Virus record (IMG/VR): IMGVR_UViG_2684622670_000003
Span: 1 to 6,355 of that record
Length of the DNA stretch: 6,355 nt
Origin: a virus
Lineage: Duplodnaviria > Heunggongvirae > Uroviricota > Caudoviricetes
Reading direction: 5' to 3' (one strand)
Shown in pieces: positions 1,817-6,355 of this stretch. Numbering within the stretch: the first letter of the stretch is position 1; each line of letters starts with the position of its first letter. Position numbers and translations under genes: made by a program. The notes beneath the pieces were generated by a model, which had not been told where the DNA came from, ran no database searches, and was given only the letters and a program-made list of their open reading frames with translations.

Positions 1817-2057
1817 GATGACCTCCCATATTTGACGTACACGCGCATGATTCAATATGTAGCAACCTATTTCTTGCTTCAATATAAAATCAGGTATTGT
1901 TGTATAACTATTTAACTAACTCCCTATCCCCACATCTCAGGCGCTCAACGTCTGTGTTCGGGGCGTTTTTTAATACCTTACCCCCAGCGGCAAATCGAAT
2001 ACACCACCAGCGCCACCGCCATTGCAATTCCTACCGTTGTGAATGCTTCAGGCCAGG

Positions 2058-2573
2058 TCATCGCAAAACATCCTCCGCGCTTATCAGTTCGTTCCGCTTC
2101 AGGTAGTCCATCGCCTTCTCCGGTAATTTGCAGTCTGGATTAGCTTTTTTCAGTTGACTGACCAGTCGTTTAACCCACATTGTTAATTCGCCAACCTGAT
2201 TACTGGATGCTAGTGGATTGTCGGCTTTACCCAGAATGACAGCACAGCAGGCCTCTTTGAGTACCCAATCAACAGCATCTTTCCATGCTCCTGTTTCGAC
2301 TGGTGGGTTCTCACGCTTTACCTGTTCATAAAAGCGCACGGCTTTAACCAGTCCTTCTGATATCACAGGGACTGGCGGGGTAGTGAATAAGGCCTGAATC
2401 TCATAGCCCGGCCTGTCGTTGCCCCCCTCTTTTGTCGGTACATATTTCCAGTCACCAACCCACATCTTCTCCTGAAAGTCCGTAACGCCTTTTTTCACGT
2501 AGCGATATCGCCATGCAACTGGTTTTGCCTGCCCTGCCGTTTCATGCCCTTCCTGATAATTAATCTCGCTCAT
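2058..2573 (-). CDS. hypothetical prophage protein, 171 aa
   Basis: ORF track. ATG at 2573 overlaps the TGA stop of the upstream 58-aa ORF (ATGA overlap). Sequence MSEINYQEGHETAGQAKPVAWRYRYVKKG...; no motif I can name. Confidence 0.6.
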   Translation of the reverse strand: MSEINYQEGHETAGQAKPVAWRYRYVKKGVTDFQEKMWVGDWKYVPTKEGGNDRPGYEIQALFTTPPVPVISEGLVKAVRFYEQVKRENPPVETGAWKDAVDWVLKEACCAVILGKADNPLASSNQVGELTMWVKRLVSQLKKANPDCKLPEKAMDYLKRNELISAEDVLR

Positions 2574-2746
2574 TCATCGCCCCACTCATCACAATATGCT
2601 TCGACCGGAGTTTTTCCTGCTTCGTAGTCATCACGCCAGGCTTCAGCATCAGCAGCACTTCCACCACGTAACTCTGCATAGTCTATTAACAGTTCATGCC
2701 ATTCTTCAAAACTGACGTTGTATTTAGTTGAACCAAAATCAGCCAT
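2570..2746 (-). CDS. small highly acidic protein, 58 aa (not in ORF track)
   Basis: My own translation of the minus strand: MADFGSTKYNVSFEEWHELLIDYAELRGGSAADAEAWRDDYEAGKTPVEAYCDEWGDE. ATG at 2746 with GAGGAAG about 7 nt upstream. The start overlaps the stop of the 60-aa ORF (ATGGCTGA) and the stop overlaps the start of the 171-aa ORF. 16 Asp/Glu against 4 Lys/Arg. Confidence 0.5.
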   Translation of the reverse strand: MADFGSTKYNVSFEEWHELLIDYAELRGGSAADAEAWRDDYEAGKTPVEAYCDEWGDE

Positions 2747-2921
2747 TTTGTTCTTCCTCTTCGTCTTTTATTTCGTGATATGAGTAATTGCAGTAGTTAA
2801 AGAAAATTTCTTTTGCTTCGTCATGAATTTCATCAGGTGTTGCGTCATCGTCCACTTCGAATACATCCTCAAAATCTCCACCAGCTATTCCCGTTTCAAT
2901 AATTATTTTGAATTTTCGCAT
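2739..2921 (-). CDS. small highly acidic protein, 60 aa
   Basis: ORF track. MRKFKIIIETGIAGGDFEDVFEVDDDATPDEIHDEAKEIFFNYCNYSYHEIKDEEEEQNG; 19 Asp/Glu against 5 Lys/Arg. ATG at 2921 has a weak SD. AT-rich coding sequence compared with its neighbours. Confidence 0.5.
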   Translation of the reverse strand: MRKFKIIIETGIAGGDFEDVFEVDDDATPDEIHDEAKEIFFNYCNYSYHEIKDEEEEQNG

Positions 2922-3014
2922 TTCACTACCGCCATTTCGAACGGCCTCCTGATGTTCTGAGGGTGCAGAAATCCCTCCGGTTAAGGATTAAATTTTTAAC
3001 AGTGCTAAATTTAA

Positions 3015-3371
3015 TTATTCAGTTCTTGATTTTGCCGCCCTGCGTATCCGCGCTTTCGCGTTACGCTCAATCTGAATTAGCTTTTCTATATTTCTCCGCC
3101 TTTCCCGCTCCTCCTGGCGCAAGAGCCTTACATCATCTGCCAGTCTGGTTTCTCTTTTCGCCACAGAGAGCATCCAGTCAAATGGCTCCACAACTGCACC
3201 GCAGATTTTACAGCGGACCTGACGCTCTTTTTCGTCAACACGGACAGAGGCGTGATGACAATATGGTCTTTCCGATGGCTCATAAAGAAAATTAACCTGA
3301 TTACGTGGGTCATCCTCTTTTACCGGAAATAAAACAATATTACTTAACTCATCTTCTGGTTTTATTTCCAT
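3015..3371 (-). CDS. hypothetical protein, 118 aa, with a Cys/His zinc-ribbon-like motif and a basic, probably coiled-coil C-terminus
   Basis: ORF track 3015..3428 begins with GTG; I trimmed it to ATG at 3371, which has AAGGAGAGGAG immediately upstream. Contains CHH...CKIC, then a Lys/Arg/Glu-rich tail (RLLRQEERERRRNIEKLIQIERNAKARIRRAAKSRTE). Confidence 0.6.
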   Translation of the reverse strand: MEIKPEDELSNIVLFPVKEDDPRNQVNFLYEPSERPYCHHASVRVDEKERQVRCKICGAVVEPFDWMLSVAKRETRLADDVRLLRQEERERRRNIEKLIQIERNAKARIRRAAKSRTE

Positions 3372-3428
3372 GCTCCTCTCCTTTGATGCGAATGCCAGCG
3401 ATAATTGAAGCCTGATAGCTAATTTCAC

Positions 3429-4669: not shown

Positions 4670-5335
4670 TCAAACAAACCCAGCCGCTTTCCGGCGTTCA
4701 TATTCCTGTTTCAGCAACTCAATTGGCGTTGGTCCCAACGGGCGTTTTGGTGCCGCCAGTTGTCGCCGTACTGGCGGAACGCTCAGGCCGTTACTAACAT
4801 GCTTTGCCCATTTCGTCAGCTGCCGTTCTGCAAGCCGTTTTAATTCCCCTTCGGTCATCTGGCGTTCAATCCCCTTTGAACGCATCTCGAGGCAAATGTG
4901 ATACAGCACAGGCTGAGACCACGGGTACTTATCACTTCCGTCGTATCGCCAGGACTCATTGCGCCAGCGGCGGTACTCCTCCATCACAGCATCCACCGTC
5001 AGACCAAATGGATTGGCCCCGCTTTCCGAAATCAGCGCCACAAACTCAGCCAGGTCCGGAGGCCATGTTTCACCCGCCCGGCAGCGGTCCATGCACTCGC
5101 GGCAGACCTGCCGGATTTGCTGCTCAGTCATCGCGCCAATCTGTGCAATCCAGAGCTTCGAAGGTGCGGCCCCGTTCTTCTGGGTCCAGCGGTTCGAATA
5201 AACCTCCCCCATGAGTTCCCACAGCTTCCAGGCCGTTTCCGTCGCTGATAAATCCGTTTTCACGTTCCCACTGCTCACGTGCTGCCCGAATTTCCTGAAC
5301 TGCCCGTGATGCGGTGCCACCTGGTGCTGCTGCAT
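4670..5335 (-). CDS. phage replication protein P-like (helicase loader)
   Basis: ORF track. The C-terminal two-thirds resemble lambda P as I remember it (PDLAEFVALI..., YPWSQPVLYHICLEM..., LTEGELKRLAERQL...). ATG at 5335 has GGGGG 6 nt upstream and a TAA one codon further up. The start is uncertain because the first ~70 codons overlap the O-like ORF in another frame; internal ATGs at 5212 and 5131 are alternatives. Confidence 0.6.
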   Translation of the reverse strand: MQQHQVAPHHGQFRKFGQHVSSGNVKTDLSATETAWKLWELMGEVYSNRWTQKNGAAPSKLWIAQIGAMTEQQIRQVCRECMDRCRAGETWPPDLAEFVALISESGANPFGLTVDAVMEEYRRWRNESWRYDGSDKYPWSQPVLYHICLEMRSKGIERQMTEGELKRLAERQLTKWAKHVSNGLSVPPVRRQLAAPKRPLGPTPIELLKQEYERRKAAGFV

Positions 5336-6164
5336 GGTTTACCCCCTTGCTGACTGGTTTAACCTGCGCCCTGACGTGATTTACGTGACGGGCGAATTTC
5401 TGCTCCCACTGAATCTGCGTAAACACTTTCCCCTCCGCTGTCCAGTAGTCCCGGAAGGCGGCAAGTTCAGCAGGTGTAAATTCTGTCTCCGGCAAAGCCA
5501 TCCCCCACAACGCAGCCCGTCGTCGAAAATCCCGTGACGGATACCAGCTATCGGTCATCGGAAATTTTCCGATGGGTTCGCTCAGACCATCCAGGAATAC
5601 AGGGGGTACAGCCTGTAACGACAAAACTTCCCGCTCACTGGTCGGAGCACTCTCGCGTGCGTTATGTGTGGGGTTTAGATCTTTGGGTTCCTTTGGGTTC
5701 CGTGATCCGTTTTTGGGTGTCTTTGATGGAAAATTTGGGTGTCTTTGGTTATTTTCCATGCAGCTAAGAGATCCGTTTTTGGGTCTGTTTTGTGCTGAAA
5801 CATAACCATTTTCGGTACTGTTTTTATTAACAGCACCAATTTTACTCACCTTTAAAGACTCCCGTTTTTGGGTGTATTCAGGCTCGGCAACGCTTTCTTC
5901 TACACCGATAAGTCGGTACACCACAATTTGCTTTGTTCTGCCTTTTCTCTCACCGGTATCAACAATTAACCCAATCTCCATCAGGTGTCGTAAGCTGTCC
6001 TGCACAGTCTTTTTGTTCAGTTCCGTTACTTCTGCCAGTGCAGATACAGACGGGTATGCACACAAATCGGCACCGCACATATCAGCAAGCCAGGTCAATA
6101 CAGACTTACTGGATGAACTGCCGGTTTTCACCTTTTTAGCCCATCGTAGTGCATCGATACTCAT
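5124..6164 (-). CDS. phage replication initiator, O-like (N-terminal HTH DNA-binding domain, iteron-encoding linker, C-terminal DnaT/replisome-organiser-like domain)
   Basis: ORF track 5124..6239 begins with TTG; I trimmed it to ATG at 6164, which has GGGG 5 nt upstream. The N-terminus MSIDALRWAKKVKTGSSSSKSVLTWLADMCGADLCAYPSVSALAEVTELNKKTVQDSLRHLMEIGLIVD is HTH-like. The linker is rich in PKNG repeats encoded by the iterons. The C-terminal segment TPAELAAFRDYWTAEGKVFTQIQWEQKFARHV is typical of phage O/DnaT-like replication proteins. It is followed by a P-like gene. Confidence 0.65.
   Translation of the reverse strand: MSIDALRWAKKVKTGSSSSKSVLTWLADMCGADLCAYPSVSALAEVTELNKKTVQDSLRHLMEIGLIVDTGERKGRTKQIVVYRLIGVEESVAEPEYTQKRESLKVSKIGAVNKNSTENGYVSAQNRPKNGSLSCMENNQRHPNFPSKTPKNGSRNPKEPKDLNPTHNARESAPTSEREVLSLQAVPPVFLDGLSEPIGKFPMTDSWYPSRDFRRRAALWGMALPETEFTPAELAAFRDYWTAEGKVFTQIQWEQKFARHVNHVRAQVKPVSKGVNHAAAPGGTASRAVQEIRAAREQWERENGFISDGNGLEAVGTHGGGLFEPLDPEERGRTFEALDCTDWRDD
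5681..5880. repeat. Iteron-like direct repeats inside the O-like gene (putative prophage origin of replication)
   Basis: Plus-strand copies: GATCCGTTTTTGGGTGTCTTTG (5704..5725), AAAATTTGGGTGTCTTTGG (5730..5748), GATCCGTTTTTGGGTCTGTTTTG (5769..5791), CTCCCGTTTTTGGGTGTATTC (5859..5879), plus tandem CTTTGGGTTC x2 (5681..5700). An AT-richer stretch (about 5800..5860) lies between copies 3 and 4. Lambda ori likewise sits inside gene O. Confidence 0.5.
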
Positions 6165-6355
6165 ACGAACCCCTGGCAGACATTTGTTTATCTGCAAAGT
6201 AATATTGATATTGCTGACGATACGCATGCTTGAAAGCAATAGCTTTTTCTATAAGCTCGTCAGTCTCACGTTCCACAACAGATGGATCCGCAAAAAGCAG
6301 CCCGGACTCCACCACATCGCCATATTCTTTGTTTAACCCGGCGATCATGTACGTA
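6136..6355 (-). CDS. hypothetical protein, C-terminal part (frame open to the right edge of the window)
   Basis: ORF track 6136..6348 (70 aa from an internal ATG), but the frame stays open to position 6355, so the true start is probably outside the window. The stop overlaps the O-like start by about 29 nt. Sequence ...MIAGLNKEYGDVVESGLLFADPSVVERETDELIEKAIAFKHAYRQQYQYYFADKQMSARGSYEYRCTTMG does not resemble lambda cII as I remember it. Confidence 0.4.
   Translation of the reverse strand, partial: TYMIAGLNKEYGDVVESGLLFADPSVVERETDELIEKAIAFKHAYRQQYQYYFADKQMSARGSYEYRCTTMG

Follow-up and report, generated by a model that had tools for sequence, protein, structure and literature searches.

Among described proteins, T7 Ocr, ArdA, phi29 p56, Ugi and AcrIIA4 resemble the acidic pair considered in this study in being small, very low in pI and encoded at early-gene positions. 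DNA mimics do not share one fold, and p56, for instance, is an acidic protein of about 56 aa composed of a beta-sheet plus a helix. Lambda and its relatives provide further points of comparison. [quoted passage not shown] Lambda NinF, a protein of 56 aa with a net charge of -10 that is encoded between P and Q, is similar to the acidic proteins in size, acidity and operon position. Neither acidic protein, however, has a sequence or fold match to the five proteins named first, homology to the lambda exo-xis proteins, or a relationship to NinF by profile comparison; candidate homologies to lambda Orf63, NinF or Orf55 were rejected at hhalign probabilities of <1%, and lambda lacks both families.

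The window, a stretch of 6,355 nucleotides, is part of a lambda-like (Qin/Rac-type) E. coli prophage in which all relevant genes, and all features whose coordinates are given below, lie on the minus strand. In the direction of transcription, the gene order runs from an O-like initiator with a DnaT domain through a lambda P-like helicase loader, a DUF1627 protein and a DUF977/Ren-like protein to a zinc-ribbon-like protein (3015..3371), followed by a 60-aa acidic protein (2739..2921), a 58-aa acidic protein (2570..2746) and a 171-aa protein encoded at the ea22 position (2058..2573), with hokD farther on. In a near-identical RefSeq locus, the operon runs on via DUF968 and RusA to the Q antiterminator. 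Judging from this gene order, the acidic block would occupy a delayed-early, nin-type position between the replication genes and Q, and both acidic proteins are probably expressed early, as an earlier note on this DNA had proposed. The zinc-ribbon-like protein, the upstream cassette neighbour of the 60-aa gene, is a 357-nt CDS in RefSeq and matches phrog_1621, the match starting at residue 20 of the 137-aa ORF; its gene is a companion of the two acidic genes in E. coli and Stx phages. A 212-nt overlap between the O-like and P-like ORFs was set aside as an artefact of ORF listing, because RefSeq starts P later, with a true overlap of 8 nt.

The 60-aa protein contains 19 Asp/Glu and 5 Lys/Arg (net charge -14, pI 4.06) and the 58-aa protein 16 Asp/Glu and 4 Lys/Arg (net charge -12, pI 4.05). 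The ORFs lie at 2921-2739 and 2746-2570, and the numbers given in the earlier note are all correct, as is its description of two small, strongly acidic proteins, both of which proved to be real and conserved. The same note described the 58-aa ORF as missed by the ORF track; the ORF is indeed unlisted there, but this reflects only a 60-aa length cut-off, since RefSeq annotates the gene (WP_000753060.1, 'hypothetical protein'). Both ORFs are genuine genes, with purifying selection, distant homologues and confident AlphaFold models as the evidence. Relative to the window allele, pN/pS was 0.05 for the 60-aa gene (26 distinct alleles from related prophages) and 0.13 for the 58-aa gene (30 distinct alleles), figures that are not independent samples as the alleles share ancestry; the variable sites in both genes cluster at third codon positions. 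Additionally, homologues of both proteins occur at 30-60% identity in unrelated phages. This evolutionary evidence suggests that the 58-aa frame is translated. The proteins are not new, as both are already catalogued as hypothetical or uncharacterised families, and the exact 60-aa sequence is public on at least 1000 contigs. Searches of Pfam, PHROG, PDB and NCBIfam gave no homology of either acidic protein to any housekeeping or structural family.

The 60-aa protein belongs to Pfam DUF7167 (PF23768) as a full-length member, scoring 53.6 bits against a gathering cut-off of 24.4, with residues 2-53 aligned to profile positions 1-60; it also matches phrog_1997 (E 2e-30) and is annotated in RefSeq as WP_001224672.1, 'DUF7167 family protein'. 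DUF7167 is without an assigned function as a family, and no mention of it, or of the accessions tried, was found in the literature searched. The AlphaFold2 model (mean pLDDT 87.2) comprises a beta-hairpin (residues 2-8 and 17-23), an amphipathic helix (residues 29-43) and an acidic C-terminal tail of lower confidence. Residues I32, A36 and F40 vary little or not at all across the aligned family members, and D30, E31, D34, E35 and E38 would lie opposite these conserved residues, on the exposed face of the helix, while the tail is acidic in all members and variable in sequence. Net charge ranges from -10 to -18 in 42 of 42 aligned members, down to 32% identity, and negative charge is therefore a selected property of DUF7167. 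A PDB sequence search with the 60-aa protein gave no significant match.

For the 58-aa protein, the match to phrog_519 is confined to the C-terminal part of the profile (E 2.6e-22, positions 76-137 of 143), and no Pfam or NCBIfam model matches the protein. An exhaustive profile search recovered only 75 representative clusters for this family, mostly stand-alone proteins of 50-65 aa. Its AlphaFold2 model (mean pLDDT 87.9) is a three-helix bundle, with helices at residues 13-27, 34-42 and 47-55, and the conserved residues of the family are W16, W37, Y41 and G44. Net charge is more variable than in DUF7167, the extremes being -15 and +1 and the median -10. Neither a PDB sequence search with the 58-aa protein nor a Foldseek search of its model against the PDB gave anything significant. 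In the T5-like phage EP_H11, a single ORF of 218 aa encodes a NADAR domain (Pfam E 7e-27) and, at its C-terminal end, a copy of the 58-aa domain. Its relative IME392 has a stop at the end of the NADAR gene, and the homologue there, of 57 aa, is encoded by an ORF of its own, 18 nt farther downstream.

The genes of the acidic block are tightly packed, and the start-to-stop overlaps that the earlier note reported at both junctions are present in the sequence. The 60-aa and 58-aa genes overlap by 8 nt in ATGGCTGA (2739..2746), a junction that is identical in 78 of 80 near-identical IMG/VR prophage loci, and the start of the 58-aa gene is preceded, at a distance of 9 nt, by a Shine-Dalgarno-like GAGGA. 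The 58-aa and 171-aa genes overlap in ATGA (2570..2573), as in most related loci. Both junctions have the start/stop overlap typical of translationally coupled genes, and coupling is accordingly a prediction for each. Other genes in the same operon abut in a similar manner (3866/3867 and 3428/3429, in addition to the RefSeq overlap of O and P), and the DUF7167 homologues of other phages likewise overlap unrelated neighbours; the junctions therefore do not single out the 60-, 58- and 171-aa trio.

Upstream of the 60-aa gene, the translation-initiation region (2922..2946) consists of a strong AGGAGG, a short hairpin and TAGTGAA, followed by the ATG. Among 84 sequences (80 IMG/VR loci, three other loci and the window), this region occurs in 21 distinct variants, with a hairpin consensus of CCGCCC-GAAA-GGGCGG that is weaker in the window allele (CCGTTC-GAAA-TGGCGG). 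The stem is conserved and 95% paired across the variants, the changes being mostly G.U on the mRNA strand, and covariation in the 84 sequences was no better than in shuffles. A 10-codon mini-ORF with a strong Shine-Dalgarno sequence (MAVVKCENSK) upstream of the 60-aa gene was rejected as a conserved element, being present in only 8 of the 84 sequences.

The block is AT-richer than its flanks, in agreement with the earlier note: GC is 0.355 in the 60-aa gene and 0.446 in the 58-aa gene vs. 0.45-0.57 in neighbouring genes, and GC3 is 0.29 in both vs. 0.42-0.64 in neighbours, so that the AT-richness is more than a matter of amino-acid composition. That note had taken the composition as consistent with a horizontally acquired moron. 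The differing GC3 favours acquisition, but a consensus-based scan of the minus strand from 2000 to 3100 found no sigma-70-like promoter or intrinsic-terminator-like site, with counts at or below those of shuffles, and the block is therefore better described as a mosaic early-operon cassette than as a classic moron. The cassette is mobile. In the Stx2a phage ArgO145, gp17-gp13 carry the same order of zinc-ribbon, DUF7167, 58-aa and ea22-position genes, plus an additional small gene behind the zinc-ribbon gene; this homologous cassette belongs to the early-left, exo-xis-type region, to the integrase side of the exonuclease gene, whereas that of the window lies in the nin-type region downstream of P. 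In strain M7424, different small genes, the last of them an ead/Ea22-like fragment, occupy the corresponding site behind the same replication module. Combined, the low GC3 and the mobility support horizontal exchange of the cassette as its probable history.

Within E. coli, the two acidic genes are rarely separated. At a minimum coverage of 80%, 1749 of 5426 complete E. coli genomes (about a third) contain the 352-bp pair, and 1749 of the 1908 matching genomes keep the pair together; because about 92% of the E. coli records with either gene thus have both, the two may be functionally linked inside this lineage. All of the 80 IMG/VR loci retrieved also carry both genes, but these loci are 97-100% identical and therefore represent one evolutionary instance, and a scan of viral contigs with DUF7167 returned near-identical E. 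coli prophages only. Phage records numbered 36 for DUF7167 and 202 for the 58-aa family, with 60 of the latter listed. At least 13 listed records carry both families, and every one of these is of the E. coli lambdoid type, one bearing an Actinobacillus phage label.

Outside these phages the families part company. Profile comparison of DUF7167 with the 58-aa family gave an hhalign probability of <1%, and HMM searches of the loci of each family's distant homologues found the partner family absent within about 3 kb. DUF7167 stands alone, with no member of the 58-aa family, in Klebsiella, Enterococcus and Pseudomonas-type phages, i.e., in phages of both Gram-negative and Gram-positive hosts, and always among small genes of early, replication or recombination regions with neighbours that differ each time: in a nin region of Klebsiella lambdoid type, upstream of a DUF2800/PD-(D/E)XK nuclease in Guernseyvirinae, after a DUF3850/ASCH protein in Enterococcus Herelleviridae, in the Ter gene cluster of phages or contigs as large as about 150 kb, and between Dam and a HolE-like gene, beside ERF/SSB and near xis-int. 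The 58-aa family, in turn, has no DUF7167 companion in Ackermannviridae, T5-like, P2-like and other phages, where it lies directly after the major capsid gene (Vi01_151c of Ackermannviridae), adjoining NADAR (T5-like phages), upstream of RdgC (a Morganella phage), after gpA (P2-like prophages) or, elsewhere, beside RecT/SSB. The earlier note had regarded the two proteins as a candidate functional pair. Since the families are unrelated and have spread independently outside the E. coli-type lambdoid phages, they do not form an obligate pair, and the co-occurrence across the phyletic range that marks an obligate two-gene system is missing from the records and loci searched.

The explanation favoured here, to which we give an even chance, is that the acidic genes encode two unrelated, independently mobile accessory proteins within a mosaic early-operon cassette, each a small protein binder. 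The cassette comprises the zinc-ribbon, DUF7167, 58-aa and variable ea22-position genes, probably co-transcribed with the delayed-early genes, and in E. coli-type lambdoid phages the two acidic genes are joined, by happenstance on this reading, in a translationally compact unit. Each acidic protein, we infer, would most likely act alone as a small stoichiometric binder of another protein. DUF7167, with a tiny beta-beta-alpha core that would display an acidic helix face and an acidic tail, may compete electrostatically for the surface with which a broadly conserved host (or phage) protein binds nucleic acid and so serve as a decoy; because its very high negative charge is conserved, electrostatic competition would be the most likely mechanism. 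The 58-aa protein, a small helical domain with an aromatic core and less conserved acidity, is more likely to be an adaptor or inhibitor module with a specific partner.

The position of the cassette directly upstream of the ea22-position gene raises the possibility that the acidic proteins are developmental modulators of the exo-xis type (cf. lambda Orf60a/61/63/73 and Ea22), tuning the lysis-lysogeny decision or prophage induction via host regulators or RNA polymerase instead of counteracting defence. The 171-aa product of the window begins with an Ea22 N-terminus: by BLASTP, residues 1-23 only align with lambda Ea22, with the shared start MSEIN.Q, and alignments with lambda Ea22 and ArgO145 gp13 are confined to the first 16-23 residues. 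The location of the ArgO145 cassette among early-left genes on the integrase side of the exonuclease gene agrees with such a role, as does the fact that the exo-xis genes, likewise small and early, act on lysogenization and induction. The likeness of the third gene to ead/Ea22-like proteins does not extend past its N-terminal junction. The 171-aa gene matches phrog_660 (E 3e-70), is annotated in RefSeq as WP_021526748.1, 'hypothetical protein', and gave no PDB match to the Ea22 C-terminal domain. In related loci, the ATGA junction and the N-terminus MSEINYQ are usually kept, and beyond the first residues the gene is variable or truncated, ranging from 38 to 270 aa among otherwise near-identical loci; this pattern marks a typical mosaic boundary at the ea22 position. 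A developmental role for the acidic proteins is opposed by the absence of a sequence relation to lambda Orf63, Orf55 or NinF and of any homologue in lambda. Both families, moreover, occur in strictly virulent phages (Herelleviridae, Ackermannviridae and T5-like phages), where a role in lysogeny is impossible. Overall, exo-xis-type modulation is regarded as unlikely rather than remote.

Somewhat less likely is that the two proteins serve as accessory factors in DNA metabolism of the phage itself, where the acidic tail or surface might, for instance, regulate a phage nuclease, recombinase, single-stranded-DNA-binding (SSB) or replication protein. The block of the window follows the O/P replication genes, and the homologues described above adjoin the DUF2800/PD-(D/E)XK nuclease, Dam and HolE-like genes with ERF/SSB, gpA, RecT/SSB and RdgC, but no neighbour family recurs across lineages. 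A conserved 'exonuclease' neighbour of DUF7167 was considered and rejected, as the Enterococcus gene so described encodes the DUF3850/ASCH protein and not the DUF2800 nuclease found in Klebsiella phages. Adjacency is in any case weak evidence, because phage early regions as a rule mix DNA-metabolism and accessory genes.

The earlier note had also suggested that the proteins belong to the DNA mimics and anti-defence factors, with all three coupled genes expressed stoichiometrically. The strong charge on which this rested is borne out and is conserved, most clearly in DUF7167 (the 58-aa family being the more variable, as noted above). Acidity alone is nevertheless weak evidence for mimicry, because the small early proteins of lambda range from -14 to +13 in net charge. 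Among those of 70 aa or less, the range is from -10 (NinF) to +13 (NinE); at -14 and -12, the two proteins are more acidic than every lambda early protein of this size, NinF being nearest, and are at the acidic extreme rather than a class apart. The structural comparison that the note had called for did not favour mimicry: both models are confident, and fold searches gave generic matches only. Neither protein resembles a solved DNA mimic (Ocr, ArdA, Ugi, p56, AcrIIA4 or others), and no DNA mimic or known anti-defence protein is among the matches listed. As mimics have no common fold, the missing match withdraws positive support rather than speaking against mimicry. Additionally, PADLOC defence profiles gave no match for the 60-aa, 58-aa, 171-aa or zinc-ribbon proteins.

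In its strongest form, the suggestion is that the two acidic proteins, perhaps joined by the 171-aa protein, make up a stoichiometric DNA-mimic complex that blocks restriction, BREX, CRISPR or similar systems. The acidity of both proteins, the overlaps kept in E. coli-type loci, the near-constant association of the pair in E. coli genomes and the early operon position are all compatible with a complex of this kind. We nevertheless consider it very unlikely, as the families are distributed independently outside the E. coli lineage, the like charges of -14 and -12 disfavour mutual binding, neither fold matches a known DNA mimic, and overlapping junctions are also found beside DUF7167 homologues with unrelated neighbours. 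The third gene counts against it as well: a product that retains only its first residues and varies from 38 to 270 aa is too inconstant for a stoichiometric three-protein complex to be likely, which leaves the stoichiometric trio of the earlier note unsupported.

A tie between the 58-aa domain and the reversal of DNA ADP-ribosylation (NADAR, anti-DarT1), raised by the EP_H11 fusion and by a report that phage NADARs counter DarTG1 (PMC11257639), is highly improbable and was downgraded to a weak single-lineage adjacency given the separate ORFs in IME392, which confine the fusion to a single record of one lineage, while no NADAR was found beside the family among neighbours with Pfam calls in the window, P2-like, RecT/SSB and metagenomic loci, or in the record annotation of the Morganella and Vi01 phages.

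Nothing in this analysis shows that the two proteins work as a pair or mimic DNA. With respect to the favoured reading of two independent accessory proteins, the decoy idea is sustained by one feature, the conserved acidity of DUF7167, and an electrostatic decoy role for this family is plausible and is the mechanism favoured here, though at less than even odds. Such a mechanism would fit an anti-defence function without demonstrating one. That DUF7167 is anti-defence in the strict sense is more doubtful still. The most far-reaching version, in which DUF7167 would be a widespread nucleic-acid-mimicking decoy against a conserved DNA- or RNA-binding host protein of immunity or housekeeping and the 58-aa protein a second, independent inhibitor, is improbable, if not extravagantly so.

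As they stand, the two proteins are sensible, generic candidates among many small acidic phage proteins, and they do not constitute a new kind of system. Should either prove to act in anti-defence or host takeover, it would matter, because the genes are extremely common, with roughly one in three complete E. coli genomes, and Stx2a-converting phages too, having them. In that event, the reach of DUF7167 to Enterococcus and Pseudomonas phages would also imply a broadly conserved target and, should the most far-reaching version hold, about a third of E. coli genomes, including those of Stx phages, would carry an unrecognised anti-defence module.

Upstream of the acidic pair (the 60-aa DUF7167 gene at 2921-2739 and the 58-aa gene at 2746-2570, both on the minus strand) lies a 137-aa ORF on the same strand (3015-3428), the product of which has a weak zinc-ribbon match under the Pfam cut-off. 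The PHROG match of this ORF starts at Met20, and the RefSeq coding sequence is 357 nt in length; the true start is probably this methionine (position 3371, MEIKPEDE...). The zinc-ribbon-like gene also accompanies the acidic pair in the Stx2a phage ArgO145.

A short hairpin (2922-2946, minus strand) follows a strong AGGAGG and precedes the ATG of the 60-aa gene. Its consensus is CCGCCC-GAAA-GGGCGG, and the window carries a weakened allele, CCGTTC-GAAA-TGGCGG. Across 21 distinct variants the stem was 95% paired; the changes were predominantly to G.U on the mRNA strand, with a single G-C to A-U switch, and covariation within these variants was not significant when compared to shuffles. In T4 genes 38 and 25, a hairpin places a remote Shine-Dalgarno near the AUG, and by analogy the hairpin described here might draw the distant Shine-Dalgarno near the AUG of the 60-aa gene.

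Relatives of one or both genes of the pair were found in other phages. The record PP818812.1, labelled as 'Actinobacillus phage vB_Apl-pPE4', carries the DUF7167 and 58-aa genes; the encoded proteins are 97-98% identical to their E. coli counterparts, and the nucleotide identity is about 91% over 1 kb. Because this likeness is closer than expected of a Pasteurellaceae phage, the sequence suggests either that PP818812.1 is an E. coli-type lambdoid phage or that its host was misassigned. Distant DUF7167 homologues (32-39% identity) were located within a Ter gene cluster that resembles those for tellurite resistance (TerC, TelA, vWA-TerF-like, and TerD) in large Pseudomonas or Escherichia-type phages (L092-L094 and L008; phages or contigs from phages, 39-151 kb in length). 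Additionally, in two T5-like phages a NADAR gene is immediately followed by a homologue of the 58-aa protein; in IME392 (L104:703-1362) the homologue is a separate 57-aa ORF following the NADAR gene, and in EP_H11 (L004:2006-2662) the two are fused into one 218-aa ORF. The difference reflects either a fusion that occurred recently or an indel in one of the records.

Within the window, the O-like and P-like ORFs (5124-6239 and 4670-5335) overlap by 212 nt in the ORF list. This overlap was rejected as an artefact of the ORF listing, because at a locus with 99% identity RefSeq places the start of P at a later ATG (153 aa), leaving an overlap of 8 nt. Downstream of the cassette, a hok/gef-family type I toxin ORF (1360-1572) was present as a mok-extended 70-aa frame, corresponding to hokD in the RefSeq annotation of related loci.

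The ea22-position gene, directly downstream of the 58-aa gene (2058-2573 in the window), has the ATGA junction and begins with MSEINYQ in the window and usually also in the related prophage loci (L012-L091), and this N-terminus is shared with lambda Ea22. The gene is as short as 38 aa and as long as 270 aa in prophages that otherwise have 97-100% identity in the DUF7167 gene, and on this sequence comparison the ea22 position resembles a sharp boundary of mosaicism or recombination. E. coli M7424 (L105; NZ_CP063153.1, 2661381-2669081) carries the same O/P/DUF1627 replication module as the window but lacks, at this locus, the genes for the DUF977, zinc-ribbon, DUF7167, and 58-aa proteins; the module is followed there by different small genes, namely those for a 105-aa hypothetical protein and a DUF4406 protein, together with an incomplete gene of the ead/Ea22-like type. 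Therefore, the site behaves as an exchangeable accessory island.
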